IMG/VR virus record: IMGVR_UViG_3300014202_000564 | Direction: 5' to 3' (one strand) | Length of the DNA: 64,000 nucleotides | From: a virus | Shown: positions 38,165 to 52,964 of the stretch, piece after piece | How the letters are laid out: every line of letters begins with the position of its first letter | Position numbering within the stretch: position 1 is the first letter of the stretch | Translations under genes and position numbers: made by a program | The notes under the pieces: generated by a model | Told to the model about the DNA's origin: nothing | The model's input: only the letters and a program-made list of their open reading frames with translations | Databases searched by the model: none

Positions 38165-38242
38165 ATGGATACATTTGACTACCTGGTCATTGCGTTTCTC
38201 TCCATCATGGTTGGGTACTTCTTTCGAGTATGGACTCTATAA
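38165..38242 (+). CDS. very small membrane protein
   Basis: 25 aa, single TM; ATG 2 nt after the upstream stop. Confidence 0.3.
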   Translation: MDTFDYLVIAFLSIMVGYFFRVWTL

Positions 38243-38599
38243 CCCTGCTCTCTTTGCATTCGAAAAGATGAGCTTGGTGAGATCCGCGTACAACGTCACC
38301 CCTGCTTCCCTTCCACAATAGACCGCATAGGTTGCCAGGACCACATGAGTGGGCAACTCCCTCAGTTTGCTTGGTTGATTCGCTTCGAACATCGGGTGGT
38401 TGCTATGAACATGTAACACTTCCTGTGTGTCCAGGTTATAGAACGCATAATACGTTCTGCTCCCCTCATCCCAATAGCTCCTCAGATCCTTGGGTGCCCG
38501 TTCCTTGGGTTGCAAGAAGAACTTACGTCCTTTGTAATCAGGGAACGTGGCTTGAATGATGTGCTTTACGGACTTGAGATCTTTTCCTATGAGCTTCAT
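38237..38599 (-). CDS. hypothetical protein
   Basis: minus strand; ATG 38599 follows AAGGAGG; the in-frame upstream ATG 38629 sits 7 nt after the -10 of its own cassette promoter. Confidence 0.65.
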   Translation of the reverse strand: MKLIGKDLKSVKHIIQATFPDYKGRKFFLQPKERAPKDLRSYWDEGSRTYYAFYNLDTQEVLHVHSNHPMFEANQPSKLRELPTHVVLATYAVYCGREAGVTLYADLTKLIFSNAKRAGL

Positions 38600-38663
38600 G
38601 GTTGCCTCCTTGTTTTCTCCCCTGTCCATGATCTAAGCATACCATATTGGCAGATAGTGTCAA
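38600..38663 (-). promoter_or_regulatory. early-promoter cassette, minus strand
   Basis: read on minus: TTGACA (38663-38658), N16, TGgTATGCT (-10 at 38641-38636), TAGATC, ATG 38629, AAGGAGG. Confidence 0.6.
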
Positions 38664-38683: not shown

Positions 38684-38743
38684 TTGACATTTTACGGAGT
38701 TATGGTAATCTGGTAACATGGGGAGTGTATCTAAAAGGATACA
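38684..38743 (+). promoter_or_regulatory. promoter plus cassette hairpin, no ORF downstream
   Basis: TTGACA 38684-38689, N16, TGgTAATCT (-10 at 38706-38711); hairpin TGTATC-TAAAAG-GATACA 38726-38743. Confidence 0.5.
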
Positions 38744-39013: not shown

Positions 39014-39093
39014 TTGACATCACATGCCAGTATGGTATTCTTGGATCATGATGATGACGCAAAAAGTAGATGATCTGAACTAGGAGGCACACA
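39014..39093 (+). promoter_or_regulatory. early-promoter cassette
   Basis: TTGACA 39014, N16, TGgTATTCT (-10 at 39036-39041), ATCATGATGA box with ATG 39048 (+7), 11-codon mini-ORF to 39083, AGGAGG. Confidence 0.65.
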
Positions 39094-39705
39094 ATGTCTA
39101 TTCGTATGATGGTAGACAAAGCTGAGTATGACAAGAACCCTGGTGAGGTTGAGTGCATTGAGAATTACCCAGGTCATGAGATTACGCGAATTCATCACAC
39201 CTATGCTTGTGGTAAGGGGTCGCATGAGGGCCGCGGTGAATCGTGCAGTCAATGTGTCAACTATTCGCCACTGTATATGAAAACGTCTTATGTGGGGTGT
39301 GTGGTCGATACCGGTGAGATCAATGGATATGATGACTCGGACTTTTACGCGGTTGTGTGGGATGATGCCAAACAGGAATTTAAACGAGTGGTCTATGCTT
39401 CAACTCGCGGCTGGTCCTATCCAAATGGTGCTTCGATTGATGCGACTCCCGAAATTGCTGCCAAGTATGCTGAGATGCAAGAAGCAAAATATAGAGCGAT
39501 ACAGGAACGTAAGCGGATGGACCGGTTGATGCGAGTGGAGCGCGGGAAGCAGGTTAAAATTGTTCGGGGTCGCAAGCTTCCAAAGGGATTAATCGGGATC
39601 TGTTTCTGGGTAGGTCAGACACGGTTTGGTTGGTCGGTTGGGATCGAGTCGGAACGGGGTCGAGAGTTCACAGCGTTAGGGAATGTGGAAGTGATTCTTG
39701 CTTGA
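39094..39705 (+). CDS. hypothetical protein
   Basis: 203-aa track ORF behind AGGAGG. Confidence 0.7.
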   Translation: MSIRMMVDKAEYDKNPGEVECIENYPGHEITRIHHTYACGKGSHEGRGESCSQCVNYSPLYMKTSYVGCVVDTGEINGYDDSDFYAVVWDDAKQEFKRVVYASTRGWSYPNGASIDATPEIAAKYAEMQEAKYRAIQERKRMDRLMRVERGKQVKIVRGRKLPKGLIGICFWVGQTRFGWSVGIESERGREFTALGNVEVILA

Positions 39706-39730
39706 CAATAACGGCAGACATGGAGGCACC

Positions 39731-39976
39731 ATGATTCCAGAACCATGCACACAAAAAGAAGGGGTCTATACACAGGACGATATTGTGAAGTGGTATGTGG
39801 TGAGCAACTACAGGCGAGCGCATGTGTTGCAAGAGGGTGATGGGTTTGTGTATCGAGTGTTCGAAATGGTTGACCATCCAAGCGGGTCCAAGGTACATGG
39901 ACGAGTGATCTATATGGGTCGCCGCAAAACCCTGGAGGGTGCGAGGGGACGCGCATTATCGTACATATGGAGATAG
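39731..39976 (+). CDS. hypothetical protein
   Basis: ATG 39731 follows GGAGG (track start 39698). Confidence 0.6.
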   Translation: MIPEPCTQKEGVYTQDDIVKWYVVSNYRRAHVLQEGDGFVYRVFEMVDHPSGSKVHGRVIYMGRRKTLEGARGRALSYIWR

Positions 39977-40070
39977 TGTATCCTTTTAGATACACCAGAA
40001 AACCTGACACTTGACTATTCTGGCACCTATGGTATTCTTGGATCATGATGATCAAGACACCAAAGGAGAC
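39976..40070 (+). promoter_or_regulatory. hairpin + early-promoter cassette
   Basis: GTGTATC-CTTTTA-GATACAC 39976-39995; TTGACT 40011, N16, TGgTATTCT (-10 at 40033-40038); ATG 40045 (+7); mini-ORF stop overlaps ATG 40071. Confidence 0.65.
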
Positions 40071-40553
40071 ATGATGATTCAACCTCTCAAACAACGTAAG
40101 AATGAATGTTGGGTCACTTCGTTAGCAATGGTCACTGGAAAAGCGGTTGATGAGTTGTTGAAAGAATTCGAGACCCTGGCAGGTATGGAATACCATGCCT
40201 CGATTGCAGCACGGAGACCGGATGGGACACAAGATTTTACTTGGTTTCAGACAGCGAACACAATGATGAAACAGTATGGATTTCAGGGTCAACCCGGATC
40301 TACCTTTGCGACTGGACTATTCGATACCCCATTTCTGGGGTTGAAGCGAGTGAACCTCACTGAATCCTTGTTACATGGGAAGGGTATTTTGGGGGTCGCA
40401 TTGGGGAAGCGCACGGCACATGCGGTTGCGTTTGAAGATGGAAAGATCTATGAGCCGAACTGTGGAACCGGTGGCCTGCCATTCAAGGAGTGGAAAAAAT
40501 TATATCGAGTTCGAGTCTATCGGTGGCGCATTGATCGATGCCAGAAAGGATAA
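40071..40553 (+). CDS. hypothetical protein, possible papain-like cysteine peptidase
   Basis: ATG 40071 follows AGGAG; NECWVTSLAMV (Cys) and RTAHAVAF (His) suggest a Cys-His dyad. Confidence 0.35.
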   Translation: MMIQPLKQRKNECWVTSLAMVTGKAVDELLKEFETLAGMEYHASIAARRPDGTQDFTWFQTANTMMKQYGFQGQPGSTFATGLFDTPFLGLKRVNLTESLLHGKGILGVALGKRTAHAVAFEDGKIYEPNCGTGGLPFKEWKKLYRVRVYRWRIDRCQKG

Positions 40554-40555
40554 CG

Positions 40556-40771
40556 ATGAAGATTTTTATCTGGGAATATGTTGAAGAGCTGACGGACCAA
40601 TATCATTCTGATGGAGGGTTGGTGATCATTGCACAAGATGAGGAGCGAGCGAGACAGCTAGCAGCAGAGCGTGATGTGAAGTTCAGAGATGATGAAGTGC
40701 CGGTATCCTATGACATCACAGCAGAGAAGGAAAAGGTCTACATTTTCCCCGATAACGGGTGCTGTTCATAA
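40556..40771 (+). CDS. hypothetical protein
   Basis: ATG 40556, 2 nt after the upstream stop. Confidence 0.55.
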   Translation: MKIFIWEYVEELTDQYHSDGGLVIIAQDEERARQLAAERDVKFRDDEVPVSYDITAEKEKVYIFPDNGCCS

Positions 40772-40786
40772 GGAAGGATTGGAGAC

Positions 40787-41185
40787 ATGGAACAGGATGA
40801 AATGGACGCGATGTTTAAACGGATCAGGTTAGATATCGCTCAGTATGACCTACGCCCAGGCACCGTTGTGGATCTGGGTGCAGAGCATGGAACATACATT
40901 GTGGCACTGACGATTCTTGGTAAGAGAATGGAGAGTCAACTACGAGATCGGAGAATTTGGAAGCTGTTCACACTGGTCAACTTGAGCTGCGGGATTACCT
41001 GGGCAGCACCAATTCCAGTCATGAGTGAGGGGACCATTGACATCAGGAAGCTGTTGAGGGGTGGGGATGACGAGAGAGCGCGGGTAACCAAGGTCACCTA
41101 TCAGGGGGGACTGGAGGAGAAGAAAAGGAAGTATCTGGTAGAGTGGGAAGGGAAGCGGACGTTCGAAGCGACTGTATCCAATTAG
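40787..41185 (+). CDS. hypothetical protein (paralog of 44534-44911)
   Basis: RIWKLFTLVNLSCGITWAAPIPVMSEGTIDIRKLLRG vs KIWALFCLVDISNGSIYEEPVPIMSEGYIDLRRLMG. Confidence 0.65.
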   Translation: MEQDEMDAMFKRIRLDIAQYDLRPGTVVDLGAEHGTYIVALTILGKRMESQLRDRRIWKLFTLVNLSCGITWAAPIPVMSEGTIDIRKLLRGGDDERARVTKVTYQGGLEEKKRKYLVEWEGKRTFEATVSN

Positions 41186-41225
41186 ATACACTTGACACTA
41201 TCTGCCAGTATGATAGACTTTGATC
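41173..41225 (+). promoter_or_regulatory. hairpin + early-promoter cassette
   Basis: TGTATC-CAATTA-GATACA 41173-41190; TTGACA 41192, N16, TGaTAGACT (-10 at 41214-41219); ATG 41226 at +7. Confidence 0.65.
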
Positions 41226-41336
41226 ATGATGAAGGTGATCAAAAGGGTAGCGAAGGAAATCAGGATTCTGGTGGAAGCATGGAAGCGGACTCAGCGCATG
41301 CCGTGCCCACAGTATACTGAGATCTTTGAACACTAG
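41226..41336 (+). CDS. 36-codon leader ORF starting at the predicted transcript 5' end
   Basis: MMKVIKRVAKEIRILVEAWKRTQRMPCPQYTEIFEH*; stops 9 nt before ATG 41346. Confidence 0.3.
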   Translation: MMKVIKRVAKEIRILVEAWKRTQRMPCPQYTEIFEH

Positions 41337-41345
41337 GAGGCAATC

Positions 41346-41552
41346 ATGATTGGGTATGTGATTACAGATGGAGCAGGTCGAAAGCTGGATGGCGGTCAGA
41401 CGCGGGCGCAAGTGGTCGCTGCGGTTCAGCGATTGCTCAGCGACATGAACGTGGTCATACCGAAGCTTCCAAAAGCAGGGTACACAGTGGTCCTAGCACT
41501 CCCAATTGGTAAGTATCTTGGTGTTGATCAGTTGCGGATACAGAAGGTCTGA
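41346..41552 (+). CDS. hypothetical protein
   Basis: 68-aa track ORF behind AGGAGG. Confidence 0.6.
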   Translation: MIGYVITDGAGRKLDGGQTRAQVVAAVQRLLSDMNVVIPKLPKAGYTVVLALPIGKYLGVDQLRIQKV

Positions 41553-41584
41553 GAGATCCTTGAACACATGGAGGAAGGCGTCTC

Positions 41585-41779
41585 ATGATCATTGAAGAAT
41601 TCACACATAATAAGAGATATAGTGGGTTTACTATTCGTTTTCAGAACCGTCCAAGCATGATCTACACCTATGATTACCTGTTGACTCGTATGAACGTGGA
41701 CCCCTTACTCAAGACCCTTTCGCGGGAAGTCAAAGAGAACATACAGTTGTCGGTGTTTCGAGAGAAGAATGCATCATAG
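41585..41779 (+). CDS. hypothetical protein
   Basis: 64-aa track ORF behind GGAGG. Confidence 0.55.
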   Translation: MIIEEFTHNKRYSGFTIRFQNRPSMIYTYDYLLTRMNVDPLLKTLSREVKENIQLSVFREKNAS

Positions 41780-41783
41780 TGGC

Positions 41784-41810
41784 GAAACAATCAAAAAGAA
41801 TAGGAGCAAT
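41784..41810 (+). repeat. 27-nt direct repeat, copy 1
   Basis: GAAACAATCAAAAAGAATAGGAGCAAT, identical to 42038-42064. Confidence 0.8.
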
Positions 41811-41817
41811 AGGAGAG

Positions 41818-42033
41818 ATGATGAAGCAGAAAGATCATAGGTTGTCTAAGGGTGTGTTGGACCTATATGAGAGAGAAATCGACGGACTTGAGCGGCAGGT
41901 CCAGTGCATGGCTCTAGAGATTTATAGACAACAAGTTTCATTAAAACGTATGATAGAGGAACAAAAAGACAGGAAGAAGCAGGTTGAGAAGTTGATGCGC
42001 GTGGTGATTCAACATCACAAGTGTACATCCTAA
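41818..42033 (+). CDS. hypothetical coiled-coil protein
   Basis: ATG 41818 follows GGAG (track GTG 41779). Confidence 0.5.
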   Translation: MMKQKDHRLSKGVLDLYEREIDGLERQVQCMALEIYRQQVSLKRMIEEQKDRKKQVEKLMRVVIQHHKCTS

Positions 42034-42037
42034 TGGT

Positions 42038-42064
42038 GAAACAATCAAAAAGAATAGGAGCAAT
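42038..42064 (+). repeat. 27-nt direct repeat, copy 2
   Basis: GAAACAATCAAAAAGAATAGGAGCAAT; supplies the RBS of ATG 42068. Confidence 0.8.
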
Positions 42065-42067
42065 CAC

Positions 42068-42289
42068 ATGAAAGATGCACTAGGAAAAACGATTACAAAG
42101 GGATGCAAGATAGCAGGACTTGCACTCAGTTCATGGACTACGCCGTGGTTCTATGTCGGAAAGATTTCGGGAATGTCAAAACGGACTGACTCAGTGTATG
42201 TGAAGGTTGCAGGTGAGGAATTTCTTGTTCCTGCAGGGGAATGTGTCGTTGTGAAATCGGCACGGCGTGTATCCAAAAAGATACAGTGA
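42068..42289 (+). CDS. hypothetical protein
   Basis: 73-aa track ORF. Confidence 0.55.
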   Translation: MKDALGKTITKGCKIAGLALSSWTTPWFYVGKISGMSKRTDSVYVKVAGEEFLVPAGECVVVKSARRVSKKIQ

Positions 42290-42323
42290 CAATAATTGTC
42301 ATATTTTTAATGTTTCTGGTGAC

Positions 42324-42387
42324 TTGACAAGATTGGCATATATGCTAGACTCAGAATGTAAGGGAAATAAACAAGGGAGGTAGAAAG
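42324..42387 (+). promoter_or_regulatory. early-promoter cassette (no ATCATGATGA box)
   Basis: TTGACA 42324, N16, TGcTAGACT (-10 at 42346-42351), GGGAGG RBS; same layout as 57743-57808. Confidence 0.6.
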
Positions 42388-42948
42388 ATGGCATATATGA
42401 GTCAAGAGAAAAAGAAGAAGATTGCTGAGGAGCTGAAGAAGGCACTCAAGGGAACCGGACTCAAGTATACCTTGGGGGTACACAATCACAGCACATTGGT
42501 GATGAACATCAAGAGCGGTCCAATTGATTTCATCGGTAACCATGTCAAGACCATGTTGGATAAAGCGTATACGTTGCAAGATTACCAGAAAGAAGCAATC
42601 GAAGCTTTGCCCAAACAAGGGTACATGGATATCAATCATTATTGGTATCATGAGCATTTCACTGGGGTTGCGCTGGAAGTCATGAAGAAGATCATCGATA
42701 CCATGCACATTGGAAACCATGATAACAGTGATCCGATGACGGACTACTTCGATGTGGGATGGTATGTTGATGTCAACGTAGGGAAATGGGAGAAGCCCTA
42801 TGTATGCACTGCTCATGATCCGGCGATTGAGGATGCAATACAGAACGCGAAGGATGCCAAGAAGGTGGAATTGGAAAAGAAGATTGTGGAGTTGAAGGAT
42901 CAATTGAATCAAGCGGTGGTCCAGTATCAGGAGTTGGTAGCAGCATAG
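42388..42948 (+). CDS. hypothetical protein (paralog of 57809-58222)
   Basis: MAYMSQEKKKKIAEELKKALKGTGLKYTLGVHNHSTL vs MAYMSQERKKEIAEQLKKVLAGTGIKYTLGVDNHSTL; adds a C-terminal coiled extension. Confidence 0.7.
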   Translation: MAYMSQEKKKKIAEELKKALKGTGLKYTLGVHNHSTLVMNIKSGPIDFIGNHVKTMLDKAYTLQDYQKEAIEALPKQGYMDINHYWYHEHFTGVALEVMKKIIDTMHIGNHDNSDPMTDYFDVGWYVDVNVGKWEKPYVCTAHDPAIEDAIQNAKDAKKVELEKKIVELKDQLNQAVVQYQELVAA

Positions 42949-42980
42949 GGGGACATGCGGATAGAGAGAAAGGAACCAGG

Positions 42981-43193
42981 ATGATCAAGGTGCACAAACC
43001 AAACAACATCTATGCCGTATTGAGTGATCATGATTTTTTGATCTGCAAGGAGATCGGTGAAGGACAACTTCGTGCAGTGCATAGTTCTATAACACATGCT
43101 CGCGCTCAGGAAACCATCATGGAGTGGGGTGAATTGAGGAGCATTGTGTATGCGATTGTACCGAGAAAAGATGTTGAATGGGTGGAGTGGTGA
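42981..43193 (+). CDS. hypothetical protein
   Basis: 70-aa track ORF. Confidence 0.55.
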   Translation: MIKVHKPNNIYAVLSDHDFLICKEIGEGQLRAVHSSITHARAQETIMEWGELRSIVYAIVPRKDVEWVEW

Positions 43194-43396
43194 GAAAACA
43201 CAAAAAGACCATGCAGGGGCGCTGGCTTCTAGAGTGGTGGGACGAAACCAGCATGTATGATCCAGAGGGGGTTTGGCAAGGTGGATCTGAGTGCTACATG
43301 AGATTCTATCGAGCATGGATTCCAAACAGCATTAAGCGTCATGATGTCGATGAACAGATGAACTATTTGGAGACACACCCTCAAGCGTATGTATGA
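43178..43396 (+). CDS. hypothetical protein
   Basis: 72-aa track ORF; 16-nt overlap with the upstream ORF. Confidence 0.5.
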   Translation: MGGVVRKHKKTMQGRWLLEWWDETSMYDPEGVWQGGSECYMRFYRAWIPNSIKRHDVDEQMNYLETHPQAYV

Positions 43397-43397
43397 C

Positions 43398-43498
43398 TGT
43401 ATCCTTTTAGATACACCCGAAAATTTGATACTTGACTTTCCTGGCACCTATGGTATTCTTAGATCATGATGATGAACAAGAAAACCAAGGGGGAAACG
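43398..43498 (+). promoter_or_regulatory. hairpin + early-promoter cassette
   Basis: TGTATC-CTTTTA-GATACA 43398-43415; TTGACT 43432, N16, TGgTATTCT (-10 at 43454-43459); ATG 43466 (+7, in frame); AACAAGAAAACCAAGGGGGA. Confidence 0.7.
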
Positions 43499-43966
43499 AT
43501 GAAGACACCAACACTCGCTGCGTTTAAATTGTGGGCGAAGGTCAACAAGGAACTTGCGTTGATGGTCTGTAAAGCTCAAGCACAGGCAGAGCTGGTGCGG
43601 GAACATGTTGACTCGTATACACAACCAATCTTCGAAACCTACGGGTTCAAGGTTGATGCCGACATCACAAAGGGGATGACGGATTACGGACGGCCCCTCG
43701 ATAAACCTTCTGACCTGTACTTGACGGATGACCCCAGGGTGACAGAGTACTATGCAGCATGTGACAAAGCACACAAAGAGCAGGGGTACGATGTGCAAGC
43801 GGGGTATTGCCCAGCACTTGTTGCAGAGCATGAGCTGATTAAGATCCAGAATCAGCTCTTAGAGAGTGGTGCTAAATTGATGGGGATCGAGGACATCCCA
43901 GTATATGGAAAAAATCGAGTGGACATGTTGAAGCTCTTGATCGGTGCATGTACCGCAAAGCAATAG
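43499..43966 (+). CDS. hypothetical protein
   Basis: ATG 43499 follows AAGGGGGA; track start 43466 is the in-frame +7 ATG. Confidence 0.65.
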   Translation: MKTPTLAAFKLWAKVNKELALMVCKAQAQAELVREHVDSYTQPIFETYGFKVDADITKGMTDYGRPLDKPSDLYLTDDPRVTEYYAACDKAHKEQGYDVQAGYCPALVAEHELIKIQNQLLESGAKLMGIEDIPVYGKNRVDMLKLLIGACTAKQ

Positions 43967-43978
43967 GAGAAGAGGAAC

Positions 43979-44173
43979 ATGGGAATCTGGTTTCAAAAGA
44001 CCACAGATAAAAGCGCAGTGATCTATCGAGTCAATGACCGGTATCTCTATGATGTCTATGCACTTTGGATGGGTCGCTATGGTAAACTTGTCAATGGTCC
44101 GTTGTTGCAGACCGGCAGCATGGATACACTTGAACAAGCAAAGAGGATGTGTTTGTCTTATTTGTACGCATAA
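43979..44173 (+). CDS. hypothetical protein
   Basis: 64-aa track ORF behind AGGAG. Confidence 0.55.
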   Translation: MGIWFQKTTDKSAVIYRVNDRYLYDVYALWMGRYGKLVNGPLLQTGSMDTLEQAKRMCLSYLYA

Positions 44174-44248
44174 TGGCAAATAAACCACTAGCCCAAGGTG
44201 ATACCATGTAACCGATATCTGGCATTTAACTTTTAACATGGAGACATT

Positions 44249-44485
44249 ATGAAAACCGAGATCGAGACAGTGACAGTGACATACTGCAGAGATTTTACTT
44301 GTTCAGTCTGCCGAAAAAGTGAAATGGGTCCAAAGGTGACGATGGTTTATCATGGTGGTGGGTTGCCGGGCACAAGTATGCTGCGGTTCAATGCGAGATA
44401 TTCGTATCCAAAGGGATGGAACTGTGTGACAGCTAGAGAAGATGGGTTGATTCTCTATACCTGTGTCTCATGTATCAAACAATAA
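44249..44485 (+). CDS. hypothetical Cys-rich protein
   Basis: 78 aa; CSVC...CVSC pairs; GGAG RBS. Confidence 0.55.
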   Translation: MKTEIETVTVTYCRDFTCSVCRKSEMGPKVTMVYHGGGLPGTSMLRFNARYSYPKGWNCVTAREDGLILYTCVSCIKQ

Positions 44486-44487
44486 GC

Positions 44488-44533
44488 TTGACAAGCTCTC
44501 TACCACTTGATAGACTCTGAATCGGAGGCGGTG
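44488..44533 (+). promoter_or_regulatory. early-promoter cassette (no ATCATGATGA box)
   Basis: TTGACA 44488, N17, TGaTAGACT (-10 at 44511-44516), GGAGG. Confidence 0.55.
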
Positions 44534-44911
44534 ATGACAGACGAAAATCTACAAGAAATTATAGAAGATGTGGATAGAGAGATGGAGCGGTATTGGGTGA
44601 GATCGGGTGAACAGGTCACAATGAGGCGCGTCTTGACTGATGGTGAGTTTGTCGTCAGTCGAATCCTCATGCAGGGTGAGATCGCGCAAGCGTTGAATGA
44701 TAAGAAGATCTGGGCACTCTTTTGCTTGGTCGATATCTCAAACGGGTCGATCTATGAAGAACCGGTGCCGATCATGAGTGAGGGGTATATCGATCTGCGG
44801 CGGTTGATGGGATCTACCAAGATTGTGTACATGAATACGAGGGGGTTTGTGAGGACCTATAAAGCAACAGCACATGATGGGTACGAATTCATTATGAAGG
44901 TGAAACGATGA
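44534..44911 (+). CDS. hypothetical protein (paralog of 40787-41185)
   Basis: ATG 44534 follows GGAGG; shared PVPIMSEGYIDLRRL core. Confidence 0.65.
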   Translation: MTDENLQEIIEDVDREMERYWVRSGEQVTMRRVLTDGEFVVSRILMQGEIAQALNDKKIWALFCLVDISNGSIYEEPVPIMSEGYIDLRRLMGSTKIVYMNTRGFVRTYKATAHDGYEFIMKVKR

Positions 44912-45087
44912 TAGCACTCTATGTTCGAACGGTGGGGATGGAAGTTGGAAAACGCTACCGGTCTCTGGAAGTGGTTGGTGAGTTTTCCTATGATGGTGCA
45001 CAATACTGGCATCATACGGTCCTTGGTGAAACGGTGCACATTCACCCGGATCTTAGATCTATCTGGATTCCGAAGGACCCAGCATGA
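44908..45087 (+). CDS. hypothetical small protein
   Basis: 59 aa; ATGA overlaps at both ends; preferred over track ORF 44921-45127 in another frame. Confidence 0.45.
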   Translation: MIALYVRTVGMEVGKRYRSLEVVGEFSYDGAQYWHHTVLGETVHIHPDLRSIWIPKDPA

Positions 45088-45335
45088 AGAAGATGACGCG
45101 ACAGGATGCTATCTCTCTATTGAATAGAACACTTGAAGATGTAGCATTTTATCGTTTTGAAACTAAAGTCTTACTGAACCGTGATCATGCAAATTCACAT
45201 GAAATATTGATACTCCTTCTTTCGAAACTGAAGGAAGTCGAGGAGAAGTTAGATCGGGTGTTAGATGAAGCGGGGGTCAATGAAGCGTCCAATAAAGCAA
45301 TTGAGGAATTGATGAAACGGGGGATACAACCATGA
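45084..45335 (+). CDS. hypothetical protein
   Basis: 83-aa track ORF. Confidence 0.55.
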   Translation: MKKMTRQDAISLLNRTLEDVAFYRFETKVLLNRDHANSHEILILLLSKLKEVEEKLDRVLDEAGVNEASNKAIEELMKRGIQP

Positions 45336-45508
45336 GTAAGGATACACTATGGGAATTTCGCGCCGTGTTGTGGTTGATGTTTGCGTTTATATTGTCACAT
45401 GATGATCGAGGGGGTTGGATGCAACTCATTGCGCTTGCCTTAGCGGGGGTGTCAATATTCATGTCCCTACTCCATCTGGTAGTCGATTACTATATTAACC
45501 GGAAGTAG
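45332..45508 (+). CDS. small membrane protein
   Basis: 58 aa, two TM; ATGA overlap with the upstream gene. Confidence 0.45.
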   Translation: MSKDTLWEFRAVLWLMFAFILSHDDRGGWMQLIALALAGVSIFMSLLHLVVDYYINRK

Positions 45509-45510
45509 CG

Positions 45511-45626
45511 GTGTATCTAAAAGGATACACTTTAAACATGAGTGTTTGGAGACCCCTTGACAAGATTGGCAGCTATGGTATGATTAGACCATGATGATGA
45601 TGAACAACAAAACCAAGGGGGAAATC
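45511..45626 (+). promoter_or_regulatory. hairpin + early-promoter cassette
   Basis: GTGTATC-TAAAAG-GATACAC 45511-45530; TTGACA 45557, N16, TGgTATGAT (-10 at 45579-45584); ATG 45591 (+7, in frame); AACAACAAAACCAAGGGGGA. Confidence 0.7.
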
Positions 45627-45938
45627 ATGGAACATCTGACAACCAAGATCGAGGCGCTTGCGGTTGAGTTGAACAAGCTGGAAGCTGAGGATTTTGCTCG
45701 AAGGGGTTTCACACATCCCCATGATAGATGGCACTTGAAGAAGGTGGGGAAAAAGTTCGCATACCTGGATTGTGGTGGGTCTGGTGCATTTCTGGTTGAA
45801 AGTGCAACAGGGGAATTGTACAATATTAAAGGATATGGAGTGCCGGATTACAACAAGAAAAAGAAAGCGGATATCGGGAACATTGCAACAGTGAATCCGA
45901 GGGAGTTGCATGCAAGACGGTGGAACTACCTTCGATAG
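45627..45938 (+). CDS. hypothetical protein
   Basis: ATG 45627 follows AAGGGGGA (track start 45591). Confidence 0.65.
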   Translation: MEHLTTKIEALAVELNKLEAEDFARRGFTHPHDRWHLKKVGKKFAYLDCGGSGAFLVESATGELYNIKGYGVPDYNKKKKADIGNIATVNPRELHARRWNYLR

Positions 45939-45950
45939 GAGTATTCAACA

Positions 45951-46115
45951 ATGAGAATGCAAAAAGCAAACTACCGCACAGTCTACCGAGTCATTGTGAA
46001 CGGACTCATGCAAGAGGAATACGAGTCCAAGTCACTTGCGGAACGTGATGTGAAACAAGCGCAAGCACAGGGGAAGGATGCGTATGTGTATACAGCATCC
46101 GTTGTGGAGTACTGA
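45951..46115 (+). CDS. hypothetical small protein
   Basis: 54 aa, below the track cutoff; AGGAG-like RBS; fills a gap. Confidence 0.4.
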   Translation: MRMQKANYRTVYRVIVNGLMQEEYESKSLAERDVKQAQAQGKDAYVYTASVVEY

Positions 46116-46118
46116 GTC

Positions 46119-46283
46119 ATGAGGAAAGAAAAGAAGTGTCCAGGTCTGCATGCCAGGGATTGTGATAATCCCCGTTCGAAGACGCTACACACTTGTCCAT
46201 ACAAAGAAGATCTGTATGCCGATCTGGGCACAATGTGTGCATGTTGTGATGACTGTAGGAAACGATGTCAAGATGAGACCTAA
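46119..46283 (+). CDS. small Cys-rich protein
   Basis: 54 aa with 8 Cys (CACCDDCRKRC); its 3' end overlaps ATG 46273. Confidence 0.4.
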   Translation: MRKEKKCPGLHARDCDNPRSKTLHTCPYKEDLYADLGTMCACCDDCRKRCQDET

Positions 46284-46797
46284 CTGGCACGGTCCTATGT
46301 ATCGCGTGGTGTCTGGTGTGCAGAGTCCTGCCGCAATGCGGTTGCGCTACAAAGTTTTCGCTGAAGAATTGCACTGGATACCGGAGACCCCAGACCGACA
46401 GGACCAGGATGAATATGATGCACAGTGTATGCCCTACGCGGTGTATATGGATGATGCACCAATCGCGTATGCTCGCGTGATTCATGAAGAACACCAATAT
46501 ATGATCGAAAAAGATTTTCTTGATGTGCTGCCCACCCCATTCAATAAAAAGAGCAGCGCGGAAGTTTCGCGTCTCTGTGTTGATCCATTTGTGCGTCATG
46601 ATGGGTTTCCTATCGTCTCGATGCTGTTGAAGAGTATCCATAGGGATCTGAAATCGCTGGGTGTGGAGTATGCGTATTTTGTGACGATTGCGCCAGTGGT
46701 TCGAGTGCTACGGAGGATTGGGGTGCCGGTGCATGTGTTGGTGAAGACGGAGAGTAAGTTATCTGCAGTTGTGAATATTTCCGAATGGATCTATTAG
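46273..46797 (+). CDS. GNAT-fold N-acyltransferase of the autoinducer-synthase (LuxI) / N-acyl-amino-acid synthase type
   Basis: RLRYKVFAEELHWIPETPDRQDQDEYD ... AEVSRLCVDP follows the R..vF..elgW......E.DeyD and S-R-l-x-V pattern; start ATG 46273 (track 46150). Confidence 0.5.
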   Translation: MRPNWHGPMYRVVSGVQSPAAMRLRYKVFAEELHWIPETPDRQDQDEYDAQCMPYAVYMDDAPIAYARVIHEEHQYMIEKDFLDVLPTPFNKKSSAEVSRLCVDPFVRHDGFPIVSMLLKSIHRDLKSLGVEYAYFVTIAPVVRVLRRIGVPVHVLVKTESKLSAVVNISEWIY

Positions 46798-46805
46798 GGG
46801 GACGT

Positions 46806-47270
46806 ATGGAACTTGTGACACAAATCTACGGTGTGATGTGGATGATAGTGATTGCTATGTTGGTTGTGGTGTTCTGCTCTATCGCGGTGCTCAGTGTGCG
46901 CGATTCTCGTAGAAAAGCAGCAGATCTAGACCGACGCTCTAAATTACATGGTCGGTATGACGTGTCCGGTATTTCTGTATCGGTCAATGGGTATCATGGC
47001 ATCATTACAAACATGAGTCTCATGGGAGCAGGAATTACTCTCGATGAACCCATTTCACCATTGCATCAGGGTCCGTATGTGAGGATCAAACTGAAATCTG
47101 ATGATGAAGTCACGATTATCAGCATGAATGCTTGGCTCACCAAAACACAAACCTACAGTATGAGACAGATCCATGTGGTATTCGATACACATGACGCACT
47201 GTCTTACCGTGAGGAACTATCTGCTCTTATCACCCACTACTGGATGCGAAAACATAGTGTATCCTTTTAG
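46806..47270 (+). CDS. membrane-anchored PilZ-like protein
   Basis: N-terminal TM; DRRSKLHGR ... ITNMSLMGAGITL gives a good (D/N)xSxxG motif but a non-canonical RxxxR. Confidence 0.5.
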   Translation: MELVTQIYGVMWMIVIAMLVVVFCSIAVLSVRDSRRKAADLDRRSKLHGRYDVSGISVSVNGYHGIITNMSLMGAGITLDEPISPLHQGPYVRIKLKSDDEVTIISMNAWLTKTQTYSMRQIHVVFDTHDALSYREELSALITHYWMRKHSVSF

Positions 47271-47348
47271 ATACACCCCCCTTGACACTATCCGTTGATA
47301 TGGTATTCTTAGATCATGATGATGAACAAGAAAACCAAGGGGGAGAAC
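47257..47348 (+). promoter_or_regulatory. hairpin + early-promoter cassette
   Basis: GTGTATC-CTTTTA-GATACAC 47257-47276 (contains stop 47268-47270); TTGACA 47282, N16, TGgTATTCT (-10 at 47304-47309); ATG 47316 (+7, in frame). Confidence 0.7.
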
Positions 47349-47492
47349 ATGAAAAAAATCGCTGGGAAGACTGCGAAGTGGGTATTGTGCGTTGAAGAGA
47401 AGATTGTCGAGTGTGTAACCTACCAAGAAGCGAAACTACGAATGATTGAGTACGAAGCAGCAGGAAGACCCTGTTACATCGAACCCAAGTAA
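47349..47492 (+). CDS. hypothetical small protein
   Basis: 47 aa behind AAGGGGGAG; extends to 47316 if the +7 ATG is used. Confidence 0.45.
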   Translation: MKKIAGKTAKWVLCVEEKIVECVTYQEAKLRMIEYEAAGRPCYIEPK

Positions 47493-47526
47493 ATCGGCAA
47501 CCATTAGGAAATCTTAGAAAGGGTTA

Positions 47527-49485
47527 GTGAAAATGATGACGAGTTTGGTAGTTACGGGTATTTGGTTGATGGTAATTTTTGCCGCAGTGGTATCAAAACA
47601 ACGAAAAGTCGCATTGATGTTGAGCGGTCTGCTCTATGTGCGCTACATGGTCTGGCGTGTCACTGAAACAATCCCCACTGATGAAACGTGGTCATTGGTT
47701 GCAGGTATTGTTTTGTGGGGTGCAGAGTTATATGGGACCATTCAGTTTGGATTTTTTGCGTTTCAAACTTGGCATGGGTTTCATACAACCCCCAAACCGG
47801 ACAAGGTTGAACCTCTTAGTGTGGATATGTTTGTCTGTGTGGTCCAAGAACCCATTGAACTCCTGAGACAAACTGTTTATGGTTGTTTGATGCAGCGGGG
47901 TCGGTACTCCATCACTGTTCACATTTTGGATGATGGAAAGCGCGAATCAGTGCGACTGTTGGCAGAGGAATTGGGGTGTCGCTATCACACCCGGACCAAT
48001 ACTCCCCAACATGCGAAAGCTGGGAATATTAATGCGGCATTACCTCGAACATCTGGGGATGTGATTGCAATATTTGACGTGGATCATGTACCCACAGAAA
48101 ACTTTGTGCAGGAGACACTACCTCATTTTAGTGATCCTAAAGTGGCGATGGTGCAAACTTCACAACACTTCTATAATCCTGACATCTTTCAATCTGGGCT
48201 ATCGCGGAAGATTCAGAACGAACAGGAACTCTTTTTCTCTGTCCTGCAACCTGGGAGAAATGCACACAATAGCGCATTCTTCGCGGGGTCTGGTGGGTTG
48301 GTGCGCCGATCGGCTCTATTGGAAATTGGTGGCTTCATGACTCAGACGATTACCGAGGATATCCATACAAGCATGGAACTCCATTCGCGGGGATGGAAAT
48401 CGGTCCATGTGAATCAACCCTTATCAGCAGGACTCATGCCGGAAACGTTTCATGGGTATGTGAAGCAGCGGAAGCGGTGGGCGATTGGATGTATGCAAGT
48501 GTTCTTTGGTGACAATCCGTTATTGAAGCGCGGGTTGACGTGGCAACAGCGGATCGATTATCTTGGATCAATGTTCTACTTCATGTTTGGGTTTCCTCGT
48601 ATGATCGGGTTGGTTGCACCACTAACAATGCTTTTGTTTGGAATCACCCCAGTTGCAACCGATCTGTGGCACCTAGTGATACAATTTGGTGCAGTGTACC
48701 TGGCACTCATTGCCACCATGCATCTTTCTGTTGCTAGGATGCGCAATCCGTTTGCTTCTGATATCTATGAAGTAGCGATGGCACCAAGTCTGTGTCGAGC
48801 AGCATTGTCGATTTGTTTTCCTCGAAAAGAACGAGTGTTTGAAGTTACCCCAAAGGGTGAGCAGCAGGATCATGGGGCGAGCATGTGGGCACCCACGTAT
48901 CCTTTGATGGTGCTTGCTTGTTTGTTGGGGTTGGGTATAATCCTGGGTGCATTTGAATTGCAGAGTGGGGATTATCATCTTGGAGTTCCATATGCGATGG
49001 TCTGGGCAACTATCAATCTGGGGATGGTACTTGCAGCTCTTTGGACAGCTCAACCAACAGAGCATCGCCGCGGTGCATTCCGTCATGTGCGGCAGGGGTT
49101 GCATAACATTCCCGCTCTGATAGGTGCAGAATATGGAAAGGTGTATGATTTGAGCATGACCGGTGCAGCAATAACCCTGACATCAATGTCACCAAAATTC
49201 TTGGTGGGGAAGCGGGTTCCGGTTGCATTTAATGATGAAGATGTGGGTATAGTATTTGTGCTCATGGCAACCATTGTTCGTCTAGATGGTATGCGGGTGT
49301 CGGTGAAATTTGATTCGGAGGATATGAAACATGTGGAAGGTCAACTTATCACTCTACTGTTTGGTCATAGTGGAGTGTGGGAAGATGAACGCGGGTTGAA
49401 AGTTTACCCAGAGTTAGAAACCTCTGCAGTGCAGCAAATTGAAACGCATGTGGCACAGGACCAACAACGAAGGGAGTTGTTATGA
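47527..49485 (+). CDS. bcsA: cellulose-synthase-like processive GT2 with C-terminal PilZ domain (BcsA-like)
   Basis: LDDG, HAKAGNIN, FDVDH, QTSQHF, FFAGSG, TEDIHTS, QRKRWAIG (QxxRW); multiple TM spans; PilZ RRGAFR + DLSMTGAAI. Confidence 0.85.
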   Translation: MKMMTSLVVTGIWLMVIFAAVVSKQRKVALMLSGLLYVRYMVWRVTETIPTDETWSLVAGIVLWGAELYGTIQFGFFAFQTWHGFHTTPKPDKVEPLSVDMFVCVVQEPIELLRQTVYGCLMQRGRYSITVHILDDGKRESVRLLAEELGCRYHTRTNTPQHAKAGNINAALPRTSGDVIAIFDVDHVPTENFVQETLPHFSDPKVAMVQTSQHFYNPDIFQSGLSRKIQNEQELFFSVLQPGRNAHNSAFFAGSGGLVRRSALLEIGGFMTQTITEDIHTSMELHSRGWKSVHVNQPLSAGLMPETFHGYVKQRKRWAIGCMQVFFGDNPLLKRGLTWQQRIDYLGSMFYFMFGFPRMIGLVAPLTMLLFGITPVATDLWHLVIQFGAVYLALIATMHLSVARMRNPFASDIYEVAMAPSLCRAALSICFPRKERVFEVTPKGEQQDHGASMWAPTYPLMVLACLLGLGIILGAFELQSGDYHLGVPYAMVWATINLGMVLAALWTAQPTEHRRGAFRHVRQGLHNIPALIGAEYGKVYDLSMTGAAITLTSMSPKFLVGKRVPVAFNDEDVGIVFVLMATIVRLDGMRVSVKFDSEDMKHVEGQLITLLFGHSGVWEDERGLKVYPELETSAVQQIETHVAQDQQRRELL

Positions 49486-49901
49486 AATATGTGGTGGTGA
49501 AGACTGAGTTTGATGATCTGGTGCCGATTATATTTCCTGAGACCATTCCACATAGGACGATTCCAAAAGAGAGTTACAACCATACTGCAGTGAGTGCTGG
49601 GTTTTGTGCTCTCAAGCAAGGCAAATGGGTTGCGTATGGGGAAAGTATAGGTCTTAAATTGAAATCTAGACCGGAGGATACCGATTTACTAAATCGCCAT
49701 TTTAGTGACACTGATACAAAACATGAGGTTGAACATTTGAAGGCTCATGTGTTCGGGATGCTGCAGATTATTGAGTTGATGAATAATAATGCACTACCGA
49801 AAGACTACGCGACTCTGAACAACTTGCAACACTGGATTGATAGTGCTCGAAAGGCAGCAAATGGTAACTGTATCCAAAAAGATACACCCACCAAAACATG
49901 A
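49482..49901 (+). CDS. hypothetical protein
   Basis: 139-aa track ORF; ATGA overlap with the bcsA-like stop. Confidence 0.6.
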   Translation: MKYVVVKTEFDDLVPIIFPETIPHRTIPKESYNHTAVSAGFCALKQGKWVAYGESIGLKLKSRPEDTDLLNRHFSDTDTKHEVEHLKAHVFGMLQIIELMNNNALPKDYATLNNLQHWIDSARKAANGNCIQKDTPTKT

Positions 49902-49938
49902 CGCTTGACAGACCGGTGGGATGTGGTAGACTTAAATC
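49869..49938 (+). promoter_or_regulatory. hairpin + early-promoter cassette
   Basis: TGTATC-CAAAAA-GATACA 49869-49886 (inside the upstream ORF 3' end); TTGACA 49905, N16, TGgTAGACT (-10 at 49927-49932). Confidence 0.65.
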
Positions 49939-50103
49939 ATGATGAATATGACGAAAATAAAAGAATTGGTTCTAGACTGTGAACGGTTGGTCAAGCGGGT
50001 AGAGCGTTTGGTTGAAGCGGATGCAGCAGATGATGTGTTCTTTGCAGCACTGAGGGTACCAAAAGAGTTGGTGGGGATAAGCCTAAAGAATGCCCAAAAG
50101 TGA
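49939..50103 (+). CDS. hypothetical small protein (candidate leaderless start)
   Basis: 54 aa; ATG 49939 lies exactly 7 nt after the -10; no RBS. Confidence 0.4.
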   Translation: MMNMTKIKELVLDCERLVKRVERLVEADAADDVFFAALRVPKELVGISLKNAQK

Positions 50104-50109
50104 GGGCCA

Positions 50110-50256
50110 ATGGAACCCTGTGAATGTGAACAATTACGAACACTTGTGGATAAGCTGATTGATGTTGCCGATAACGCGACTCCAATCCATTTCATGAGGG
50201 AACTTGACAAGGTGGTGACGGAAGCGAAAGAGATCCGTCGAAGGGGGAATCAATGA
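50110..50256 (+). CDS. hypothetical small protein
   Basis: 48 aa, below the track cutoff; stop overlaps the next ATG. Confidence 0.35.
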   Translation: MEPCECEQLRTLVDKLIDVADNATPIHFMRELDKVVTEAKEIRRRGNQ

Positions 50257-50405
50257 AGCTCGTATGCGCATGGTGTCTACAAGAGGGGAAACCTGCGGAT
50301 ATGGGGGACAAGGAACCCCTAGACGATACGCGGGTGAGTCATACGATCTGTGATGATCATTTTAAGCAGTTTGATGCTCAATATGGGGACCCACATAAGA
50401 CTTGA
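50253..50405 (+). CDS. small Cys-containing protein
   Basis: 50 aa; CAWC...CDDH; stop lies inside the next -35. Confidence 0.35.
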   Translation: MKLVCAWCLQEGKPADMGDKEPLDDTRVSHTICDDHFKQFDAQYGDPHKT

Positions 50406-50470
50406 CAATTTGGACGGGTGTGGTAGACTTAAATCATGATGAATGACCAACAAAACAAAGGGGTGAAATC
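50402..50470 (+). promoter_or_regulatory. early-promoter cassette
   Basis: TTGACA 50402, N16, TGgTAGACT (-10 at 50424-50429); ATG 50436 (+7); mini-ORF stop overlaps ATG 50471. Confidence 0.65.
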
Positions 50471-50620
50471 ATGAGGATGATTATTACGGGGGTGGTGCTT
50501 GGTATAGTGATGTTCATCATGTATACGACAGCAAGTATGACGAAGGATGCAGCAGAGGGGGCGAAGAAGCTGGTTGAAAGTCGGAATGCAATGATCGAGG
50601 AGATCTTAAAGGAGCAATAA
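50471..50620 (+). CDS. small membrane protein
   Basis: 49 aa; N-terminal TM; AAAGGGGTGA RBS. Confidence 0.45.
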   Translation: MRMIITGVVLGIVMFIMYTTASMTKDAAEGAKKLVESRNAMIEEILKEQ

Positions 50621-50622
50621 CA

Positions 50623-50817
50623 GTGGCAACGATTAAAATCAAAACCACATACCAACCATACTTTGGGTGGAATGCGATTGACGAGAACACCTATGATGGT
50701 GCACCAGACAGCATTAATAAGGAATGCGGAACCGGTGAGACCGAAGAAGAAGCGATCAATGACTTACTAGAGCAATTGACGGAACGAGATACCCTGGAGG
50801 ATGAAGATTATGGATAA
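50623..50817 (+). CDS. hypothetical acidic protein
   Basis: 64-aa track ORF; GTG start 8 nt after AAAGGAG. Confidence 0.5.
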   Translation: MATIKIKTTYQPYFGWNAIDENTYDGAPDSINKECGTGETEEEAINDLLEQLTERDTLEDEDYG

Positions 50818-50965
50818 GATGACGAGGACGGAAGTGCATAGTCTTCTTGTTCAGGTGACCGAGGCAAAAGCGGTCCTGGCTGCGGCACAATCGCATTATG
50901 ACAAGCTTTATCATCGGTTGTGGAACGAGATCCAGCAGCATTATCCAATCGAACCTAGGAACTAG
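50810..50965 (+). CDS. hypothetical small protein
   Basis: 51 aa; overlaps the upstream stop. Confidence 0.4.
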   Translation: MDKMTRTEVHSLLVQVTEAKAVLAAAQSHYDKLYHRLWNEIQQHYPIEPRN

Positions 50966-51076
50966 TGTATCTAAAATGATACACCCAGAAAGTATATATT
51001 TGAGGACTTGACATTCTGGCAGACTTTGTTATACTCAGATCATGATGAATGACAAACATAACAAAGGGGTGAACTG
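50965..51076 (+). promoter_or_regulatory. hairpin + early-promoter cassette
   Basis: GTGTATC-TAAAAT-GATACAC 50965-50984; TTGACA 51008, N16, TGtTATACT (-10 at 51030-51035); ATG 51042 (+7); mini-ORF stop overlaps ATG 51077. Confidence 0.7.
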
Positions 51077-51346
51077 ATGGGACGCTCTATTACTCCAAAA
51101 TACCGAATGGAATTTGTTGATAGCCAGGGTGTGAAGGTTCAGATGTGCTGGAAGGGGAAAGCAACGGAAAAATCTTTGGGGGAGTGGGTTTTCGCCTATC
51201 ATGAGTCGATGAAGTCTGGTGGTTGCAATGCGCACATTCCTCAATCTCTTGGGGTGTTTCCTGCGGTAAACAAAGCCAAGGTGATTCGACAGGTTGACAA
51301 TGCGGTTGTTGCAACCTGGAATGCACCAATGTTCATGGTGATTTGA
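51077..51346 (+). CDS. hypothetical protein
   Basis: 89-aa track ORF. Confidence 0.6.
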   Translation: MGRSITPKYRMEFVDSQGVKVQMCWKGKATEKSLGEWVFAYHESMKSGGCNAHIPQSLGVFPAVNKAKVIRQVDNAVVATWNAPMFMVI

Positions 51347-52514: not shown

Positions 52515-52765
52515 GGATCAATAGAAAAAAGCTTCTTGTCCGATGGAGCAAAAAGGAGAATGATTTTTTCATTAGCTATCCATCCAGACCGGATGGGCAT
52601 CTAGCATCCAATGTGCTCTTCTCTAAGAGAATGTACCCAAAGTTTGGTGATAGGAAACCTGGTGAATTTCCTTGGGATTTTGACCCTTCGTTTATTGAGG
52701 AACTTGAGAAGAGGGGATACGACACCAAGACTCTAAGATTATCTGTGGAATTGAAGAAGACTTGA
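52487..52765 (+). CDS. hypothetical protein
   Basis: 92-aa track ORF. Confidence 0.55.
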   Translation: MVAEVGDSVRINRKKLLVRWSKKENDFFISYPSRPDGHLASNVLFSKRMYPKFGDRKPGEFPWDFDPSFIEELEKRGYDTKTLRLSVELKKT

Positions 52766-52799
52766 CAGGCGCCAGGGAGTTTGGTATCATGGAGATATT
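52762..52799 (+). promoter_or_regulatory. early-promoter cassette (short)
   Basis: TTGACA 52762 (overlaps the upstream stop), N17, TGgTATCAT (-10 at 52785-52790), GGAG. Confidence 0.5.
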
Positions 52800-52964
52800 A
52801 TGAAACCCACATTACACCTAGATTCAAGAATTTCAGATGCTCTGCAGGATATTGAAGCCCTTAAGAGGAAAGTTGGAGAGCTAGAAGCTCGTCTTGATGG
52901 TGTAACTGACGCACTTTTAAAATATGCAGAAGGTGCCAAGAACGTATTGGAGGAGAGATCATGA
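52800..52964 (+). CDS. hypothetical coiled-coil protein
   Basis: 54 aa, below the track cutoff. Confidence 0.4.
   Translation: MKPTLHLDSRISDALQDIEALKRKVGELEARLDGVTDALLKYAEGAKNVLEERS

Follow-up and report, generated by a model that had tools for sequence, protein, structure and literature searches.

Promoter cassettes with an ATG at the predicted start site

We analysed a 64-kb window (64,000 nucleotides, IMG/VR record IMGVR_UViG_3300014202_000564), part of the genome of a large and novel T4-like myovirus without a close sequenced relative, and studied ten repeated promoter cassettes in it, each of which carries an ATG at the predicted transcription start. The cassettes lie at 38.6-51.1 kb, nine on the plus strand and one on the minus strand, within a run of small open reading frames (ORFs) without known function that is typical of a hyperplastic region; the genes downstream of all ten are ORFans or of unknown function. 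Elsewhere, the window encodes a gp43-type DNA polymerase (2830-5463), UvsX, a DnaB-like (gp41-like) helicase, a primase and a ribonucleotide reductase, with PHROG matches for the core replication genes at E-values from 1e-303 to 1e-71. The best tblastn matches of the DNA polymerase were T4-like cyanophages (cyanomyovirus polymerases), at 49% amino-acid identity. A megablast search of the 38-52 kb region against 50,697 phage records gave no match. The structural genes lie outside the window.

As indicated in Table 1, the ten cassettes share one layout, consisting of C-TTGAC(A/T), a 16-nt spacer ending in TGn (extended −10), TAnnnT, six nucleotides and an ATG. The six bases between the −10 and the ATG end in (A/G)A(T/C)C in every case. 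An independent promoter consensus scan gave the cassette sites as the best promoters of the region (TTGACA, 16-nt spacer, extended −10 TG), and the motif TGnTAnnnT-N6-ATG is found 21 times in the window for 3.9 expected. The A of the ATG is always the seventh base after the −10 (offset 7), and all ten pairs of −10 end and ATG given in the original prediction proved correct when checked. An A as seventh base after the −10, with C at −1, is the preferred start of sigma-70 RNA polymerase, and this A is the predicted +1. The ten cassettes are paralogous copies of one cassette; the constant 7-nt spacing is therefore one inherited property and not ten independent observations.

The box ATCATGATGA that surrounds the ATG occurs in eight exact copies, all of them on the plus strand and within 12 kb, against 0.73 expected, and none of 100 shuffles reached eight. 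The original prediction had placed this box in all ten cassettes, which was too broad: the copy at 45588 (cassette 6) is the variant ACCATGATGA, and the minus-strand copy reads only ATCATGGACA and is thus not the full box.

A hairpin with a 7-bp stem, GTGTATC-N6-GATACAC, stands 0-40 nt upstream of the −35 in seven of the ten cassettes and is missing from those with their ATG at 39048, 50436 and 38629. Its loop is found in both orientations, as CTTTTA (39976-39995, 43397-43416 and 47257-47276) or as the complement TAAAAG (45511-45530, 38726-38743 and 57702-57719), so that a DNA-level or strand-symmetric role fits better than a signal in one RNA strand. We rejected the hairpin as an intrinsic terminator: it has no T run, and the terminator scan listed only 47277-47256 on the minus strand. 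An Rfam scan of 36000-58500 gave no match at the gathering score.

Downstream of the promoter, eight of the ten cassettes have a Shine-Dalgarno (SD) sequence of the AAGGRGG type 5-9 nt before an ATG, and the other two (41226 and 49939) open an ORF at +1. The SDs are strong and the ATGs that they lead lie 12-46 nt from +1. The leaders, whose sequence is shared by several of the window cassettes, are A/C-rich, mostly 12-36 nt long and weakly structured, with 5' ends that are largely unpaired. Their minimum free energies (−1.3 to −6.8 kcal/mol per 50 nt) did not differ from those of shuffled sequences, which is compatible with an open 5' end and carries no weight alone. Leaders such as ATGAATGAACACACAAAGG resemble what we take to be the 'downstream box' consensus, a likeness that we did not use as evidence.

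Table 1. Coordinates of the cassettes, their reading frames and further promoters of the same class in the window.
Feature	Position	Strand	−10 end/ATG	Remarks
Cassette 1 promoter	38636-38663	-	38636/38629	−35 TTGACA 38663-38658, TGG, −10 TATGCT 38641-38636; predicted +1 is A of ATG 38629
Cassette 1 gene	38237-38629	-		5' ATG in frame; 30-nt leader; SD AAGGAGG; main ATG 38599; 120 aa from SD-led ATG
Cassette 2 promoter	39014-39041	+	39041/39048	TTGACA / TGG TATTCT
Cassette 2 mini-ORF	39048-39083	+		11 codons; TAG within SD TAGGAGG, 10 nt before ATG 39094 (gene 39094-39705)
Cassette 3 hairpin	39976-39995			GTGTATC-N6-GATACAC, upstream of promoter
Cassette 3 promoter	40011-40038	+	40038/40045	
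Cassette 3 mini-ORF	40045-40074	+		9 codons; ATGA overlap with main start 40071 (gene 40071-40553)
Cassette 4	41172-41219	+	41219/41226	hairpin 41172-41191 directly adjoining promoter 41192-41219
Cassette 4 ORF	41226-41336	+		36 codons from predicted +1, no SD; TAG within SD of gene 41346-41552
Cassette 5	43397-43459	+	43459/43466	hairpin 43397-43416; promoter 43432-43459
Cassette 5 gene	43466-43966	+		5' ATGATGATG in frame with main ATG 43499; 33-nt leader; SD AAGGGGG
Cassette 6	45511-45584	+	45584/45591	hairpin 45511-45530; promoter 45557-45584; box variant ACCATGATGATGATG
Cassette 6 gene	45591-45938	+		run of four 5' ATGs in frame with main ATG 45627; 36-nt leader
Cassette 7	47257-47309	+	47309/47316	hairpin 47257-47276; promoter 47282-47309
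Cassette 7 gene	47316-47492	+		5' ATG in frame with main ATG 47349; 33-nt leader
Cassette 8	49868-49932	+	49932/49939	hairpin 49868-49887; promoter 49905-49932
Cassette 8 gene	49939-50103	+		conserved 54-aa gene from predicted +1 ATGATG, no SD
Cassette 9 promoter	50402-50429	+	50429/50436	
Cassette 9 mini-ORF	50436-50474	+		12 codons; ATGA overlap with main start 50471 (gene 50471-50620)
Cassette 10	50965-51035	+	51035/51042	hairpin 50965-50984; promoter 51008-51035
Cassette 10 mini-ORF	51042-51077	+		11 codons; TGATG overlap with main start 51077 (gene 51077-51346)
Eleventh promoter of the class	38684-38711	+		ATG at offset 7 (38718); absent from the original prediction; points into hairpin 38726-38743
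Promoter of the class without box (internal control)	42324-42351	+		+1 region GTAAGGG
Further promoters of the class without box	44488-44516, 52762-52790, 55526-55554, 57743-57771			

The cassettes are of the PeSL type and are found in related phages

Scanning metagenomes with a 23-base degenerate pattern of the cassette returned six loci from related phages, and more relatives were obtained through the conserved neighbouring protein encoded at 38599-38237 (protein search followed by contig look-up). All the relatives found have the same hairpin, promoter and ATG position. A scan of viral contigs with the hairpin alone (GTGTATC-N6-GATACAC) gave more than 100 matches, mostly single chance ones, and no relatives. 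Once near-duplicates were removed, the collection held 60 non-redundant promoters of the class; 45 ATG cassettes were used for conservation, and 38 had a recognisable SD-led start. Three start calls were set by hand, those at L138 7831 and L165 411 as zero-leader genes and that at L165 2265 as a 30-nt leader by homology (relatives are designated by contig label and position). Promoters of the same class without an ATG at +1 served as controls (n=13, of which 10 were used for the comparison of stop positions).

Promoter-early stem-loops (PeSLs) are known from T4-type phages as mobile regulatory cassettes (Arbiol et al. 2010, PMC2839356; Comeau et al. 2014, PMC4122927). Like them, the sites described here are repeated composites of a stem-loop, a near-consensus sigma-70 early promoter and, at the 3' side, an SD with a start codon; they are clustered among the ORFans of a hyperplastic region in a T4-like genome, and they are linked to gene swaps between relatives in which the crossover falls between the −10 and the ATG. 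These traits define a PeSL, and we therefore consider the ten sites as PeSL-type cassettes with high confidence. The window cassettes differ in their stem-loop (GTGTATC-N6-GATACAC, with the loop either way), their 16-bp spacer and their extended −10, and also in that their transcripts are predicted to begin with AUG(AUG) and that leader length and reading frame are locked together. Only one of 28 early promoters of RB49, the type PeSL phage, has an ATG at offset 7, and the start region there is ATCGAAAAC or ATACCAAC. The 5' AUG is thus specific to this clade and not general to PeSLs.

Gene swapping could be followed between relatives. Contig L134 is syntenic with the window at 35-52 kb and holds a reshuffled subset of the window genes. 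When the L134 cassette on the minus strand (+1 at 4041) was compared with the L135 cassette on the plus strand (+1 at 770), 106 of 120 positions were identical through ...TGAATCATGA and only 30 of 90 after it, and different genes were attached. Since identity ends at the box, the box is also a recombination crossover point, in agreement with the PeSLs of RB49, for which crossovers between the −10 and the ATG have been shown experimentally (PMC2839356). A further trait of PeSLs is that flanking copies recombine to form mini-circles in infected cells. In addition, the cassette at L141 69(-) is an apparent recombinant of those at L138 9216 and L138 8718.

The ATG is conserved at offset 7

An ATG stands at exactly offset 7 in 37 of the 60 non-redundant promoters of the clade, and at offsets 6, 8 and 9 in none. 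Within the 45 ATG cassettes, −3 is A and −1 is C in 44 each, the ATG at +1 to +3 is nearly invariant, and the ATGA at +4 to +7 is kept in about three quarters.

The same bases form a perfect 8-bp palindrome, ATCATGAT, from −3 to +5. It straddles the start site, the classic position of a repressor, and the original prediction had offered an operator as an alternative; a phage or host protein would bind there and shut the early promoters off. The palindrome is intact in 27 of the 45 cassettes, and conservation is roughly symmetric about its centre (A at −3 in 44 against T at +5 in 33; T at −2 in 36 against A at +4 in 37). However, the 18 cassettes that lack it (ATCATGGAGG, ATCATGAAA and similar) keep ATC|ATG at the same offset, and this hexamer, unlike +4 and +5, is nearly invariant, which weakens the operator alternative. 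Moreover, 8 bp is short for an operator, no candidate binding protein was identified (no search aimed at one was made), and an operator says nothing on the lock of the reading frame described below. We consider it improbable. In a variant of the same idea the box would be a site of the methylation or restriction type (CATG, TCATGA, GATC). Either function could coexist with other roles. Dam methylation at GATC was rejected as unlikely, as conservation does not extend to the G at −4 and only 20 of the 45 cassettes contain GATC.

Transcription might also start elsewhere, at +4 or +10 or by read-through from upstream. The ATG would then be internal to the leader, and the pattern a by-product of duplicated gene starts (ATC ATG ATG A...). 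Start-site choice can indeed vary by 1-3 nt, and ATC is the commonest triplet before SD-led starts, in 8 of 38 cassettes and in 7 of 81 starts of the whole window. Yet the A at offset 7 following a C is where sigma-70 prefers to start, mRNAs that began at the second A (offset 10) would still open with an AUG in an unchanged frame, and the first ATG has no SD upstream of it from which internal initiation could proceed. This possibility therefore seems highly improbable to us. The related idea that ATC before ATG is a general start context was rejected, the triplet being only modestly the commonest among the 81 window starts.

The reading frame of the first ATG is locked to the downstream gene

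We then considered the reading frame opened by the first ATG. The frame outcomes of the ten window cassettes are as the original prediction stated, but its claim that they are non-random is not demonstrable from the window alone, where four of the eight SD-led cassettes are in frame (p=0.26, not significant). The claim was clearly supported once the relatives were added. The 5' ATG is in frame with the main start, and the leader free of stops, in 29 of the 38 SD-led ATG cassettes, as compared with 3 of the 13 controls without an ATG at +1 (Fisher, p=0.001). A naive binomial test of 29/38 against one third gave p=7e-8, and when each leader family and length was counted once the ratio was 15/22 (p=9e-4). 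The in-frame leaders are 12, 18, 21, 24, 27, 30, 33 or 36 nt long, and their sequences are very unlike each other. In a set of box-bearing promoters from other viral contigs, which were picked regardless of frame, four of six were in frame (L003, L004, L008 and L010). A pseudo-frame control, reading from +2 or +3, gave no information because ATGATGA itself holds a TGA in one of those frames.

The out-of-frame cassettes were just as regular. In all nine, the mini-ORF stops between −13 and +6 of the main ATG, with the layout ATGA, TGATG or TGAcATG or with the stop inside the SD, and there was no long overlap; the corresponding count in the controls was 5 of 10 (p=0.02). Orthologous genes show several of these arrangements. 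For the gene at 51077, the mini-ORF of the L134 and L137 orthologues ends in TGAcATG, and that of L165 is in frame (33 nt). The orthologues of the 45591 gene in L133, L134 and L136 have leaders of 27-30 nt that are likewise in frame. One pair links the loss of the ATG with that of the frame: L165 116 has ATA and a 16-nt leader, whereas its orthologue L134 1776 has ATG and a 12-nt leader.

Some genes open directly at +1. The orthologue of the 49939 gene (LVxDCERLVxRVE...) at L138 7831 is likewise leaderless from +1 and without an SD, and those in L132, L134, L136 and L165 have an SD leader of 21-27 nt in frame with the same 5' ATGATG. A 114-aa gene at L138 7271 also opens at +1 without an SD. 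In the window, 41226-41336 is a candidate leaderless small gene. Taken together, the frame lock, the stops at the main start and the SD-less genes at +1 suggest, indirectly, that ribosomes use the 5' AUG.

The position of the first ATG also matters for annotation. For the 38629 gene, the public JGI call P0001 (130 aa) takes the +1 ATG as its start, adding MDRGENKEAT, and the homologues of the 38237-38629 protein all begin with MKL... at the SD-led ATG and are called from there; the cassette itself creates this ambiguity in the start codon. Exact protein look-ups for P0001 and for the product of the 39094 gene returned no record.

A similar arrangement was seen in L002 (IMGVR_UViG_3300010354_000099, 59 kb), an unrelated viral contig, where five of seven TTGACA/TGnTAnnnT promoters have an ATG exactly at offset 7. 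These ATGs apparently open the coding sequence directly and without an SD, and leaderless early genes that abut their promoter may have a wider distribution among phages.

Translation from the 5' AUG or a promoter and recombination module

The frame pattern could arise without any translation of the 5' AUG. The cassette would then be a promoter and recombination module only, ATCATGATGA would be the conserved 3' edge of the PeSL, and its AUG would never be used by ribosomes. The box would offer the best context for the start (C at −1, A at +1), an initial sequence adapted to promoter escape and microhomology for crossovers, and the frame bias would come from shared ancestry together with triplet slippage of the ATG run. 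Several observations fit this explanation, weigh against a translated 5' AUG, or do both. The cassettes are paralogous repeats that recombine, so that the counts given above are not independent, and both the breakpoint between L134 and L135, exactly at the box, and the experimental crossovers of RB49 between the −10 and the ATG (PMC2839356) are what a recombination module would leave. When only distinct lengths after the ATG run were counted, which is the most conservative count, six were in frame and six out of frame, which is not significant. Part of the variation in leader length stems from slippage of the ATG repeat, which is inherently in multiples of three. The PeSLs of RB49 have an equally conserved initial transcribed sequence, ATCGAAAAC, that contains no AUG, and conservation of the start region alone thus does not imply translation. 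Leaderless translation is, besides, inefficient in enterobacteria (PMC9031893).

The more distant relative L152 (IMGVR_UViG_3300022205_000001, 168 kb) adds to these points. Its homologous cassettes, tatatcATAGTGAGG..., have ATAGTG in place of ATGATG, and all five retain open leaders whose length is a multiple of three (21, 21, 24, 21 and 33 nt). Either the GUG at +4 serves as a start, or the rule of three has another cause. A scan for cassettes of this type returned only L152 itself.

On the other hand, a module for transcription and recombination alone leaves four features unexplained. All nine out-of-frame cassettes stop on the main start and none has a long overlap; leaders that differ greatly in sequence and length (12-36 nt) are nevertheless multiples of three; conserved genes without an SD open exactly at +1; and the frame is lost in the orthologue in which ATG became ATA. 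We regard this explanation as rather unlikely, while giving it serious weight, and we lean slightly towards the opposite one, that ribosome capture of the 5'-uAUG/leaderless type (5'-uAUG, a 5'-terminal AUG on an SD-led mRNA) is built into the PeSL cassette. The original prediction had proposed leaderless translation from this AUG coupled to the main start. It is partly supported, by the frame and stop pattern and by the SD-less genes at +1 across relatives, but the frame pattern within the window is not significant. The original prediction had not recognised the cassettes as PeSL-type elements, the box as a recombination breakpoint, or the E. coli precedent for a 5'-terminal AUG on SD-led mRNAs.

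A proposed mode of action for the 5' AUG

Both steps of the proposed mechanism, a transcription start at the first A and translation from the 5' AUG, are predictions made from the DNA. The host sigma-70 RNA polymerase would start at the A of the first ATG, so that the early mRNAs would begin with 5'-AUGAUGA, and, thanks to the tandem ATG, a start 3 nt downstream would leave the mRNA with a 5' AUG and its frame unchanged. Ribosomes would recognise the 5'-terminal AUG in the leaderless (70S) fashion, besides the SD-led start. If the 5' AUG is read in this way, selection would allow only three layouts, as we propose. In the first, the 5' AUG is in frame with the SD-led AUG and would give a protein with about 4-12 extra N-terminal residues. 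In the second, a mini-ORF ends at or beside the main start, as ATGA, as TGATG or with its stop codon in the SD, and termination there would be followed by re-initiation. In the third, the gene opens at +1 without an SD.

Tentatively, the cassette might on this basis be seen as a portable dual-mode initiation module, a more specific proposal to which we commit ourselves less. Its AUG(AUG) would capture 70S ribosomes directly, and these would then continue through the leader in frame or else stop and initiate anew at the SD-led start. Recombination at the box could produce purely leaderless genes by deleting the SD leader. In this view, evolution would have left its mark of the process in the frame-locked leader throughout a clade of environmental T4-like phages.

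Comparison with known translation starts

In E. coli, SD-led mRNAs with a 5'-uAUG bind 70S ribosomes and are translated, and some of these AUGs affect the downstream cistron (Beck, Fleming & Janssen 2016, PMC4965119); leaderless initiation has been reviewed (PMC9031893). The likeness to the phage cassettes lies in the presence of a 5'-terminal AUG and a downstream SD-led start on one mRNA, and in the mini-ORFs of 5-26 codons with ATGA overlaps or a short distance to the main start; for the 26-nt ptrB leader, a function in ribosome loading (standby) was put forward (PMC4965119). In contrast, the E. coli cases are scattered over unrelated chromosomal genes, with no reported conservation or frame constraint, and in-frame cases were deliberately excluded (PMC4965119), whereas the phage cassettes are mobile, reused before many genes, conserved across diverged phages and mostly in frame, and are known from sequence alone.

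The leaderless lambda cI mRNA transcribed from pRM offers a second comparison, since 70S ribosomes read it from an AUG at the extreme 5' end of this sigma-70 transcript (PMC9031893, PMC10491246), which is the layout predicted for the genes at 49939 and L138 7271. The difference is that cI is one regulatory gene and has no SD, whereas most of the phage cassettes keep a strong SD, hence two modes, and serve early lytic genes.

We regard the cassette as a variant that combines two elements already known, the PeSL and 5'-uAUG/leaderless initiation, and not as a separate category. Strong sigma-70 early promoters of phages, such as PN25 and P26 of T5, form families with conserved sequence beyond +1. 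We know of no report that conserved start regions of the T5 type begin with AUG or are frame-locked. If the 5' AUG is read, this would be, to our knowledge, the first known case of a 5'-terminal AUG as a mobile and evolutionarily constrained part of a promoter cassette.

Under the more tentative dual-mode proposal, translation of newly acquired ORFan genes would follow at once upon their transcription, possibly also where the host or the phage alters SD-dependent initiation. The roles that a 5'-uAUG could have here are ribosome loading, the production of N-terminal isoforms and coupling, and dozens of variants exist naturally in the clade (in-frame, ATGA-coupled, SD-less and ATG-to-ATA). PeSL biology would gain a feature, since the crossover point coincides with the predicted start of both transcription and translation, and a compact promoter and ribosome binding site part for synthetic biology is suggested. 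Annotation can easily overlook SD-less genes such as those at 49939 and 41226, or give them a wrong start. Should the 5' AUG go unread, the cassettes are simply a new sequence family of PeSLs.

Other promoters of the class and neighbouring genes

Not all the promoters of this class are followed by an ATG, and the five window promoters that lack the box were, like the eleventh promoter, absent from the original prediction. A second conserved start region, GTAAG(G/A)G or GTAGGGG, follows the same promoter type at 42358, 57778 and 55561 in the window and at L138 1325, and it precedes paralogous genes that begin with MAYM... (42388 and 57809). At 52762-52800, the predicted +1 is the A of ATTATG, so that the ATG, which opens a 54-codon ORF in a near-leaderless arrangement, lies only 3 nt from the 5' end; the discriminator contains a GGAG.

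The eleventh promoter (38684-38711, plus strand) converges with another of the same class on the minus strand (38796-38768). The two flank the hairpin at 38726-38743, which is inside a longer inverted repeat, and the convergent pair is kept in relatives (L134 4118-4226, L135 585-693, L138 at about 9834 and L165 2110-2148). It could give rise to a short pair of sense and antisense RNAs or serve as an insulator in both directions, at the point of divergence between leftward and rightward early transcription.

Finally, the hyperplastic region contains auxiliary genes for a LuxI-like autoinducer synthase (46150-46797), a small PilZ-like ORF (46785-47270) and a BcsA-like GT2 glycosyltransferase of 652 aa with a C-terminal PilZ domain (47527-49485), the last of which is 34% identical to the cellulose synthase of Salmonella. 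For a T4-like phage, such a complement of auxiliary genes is unusual.

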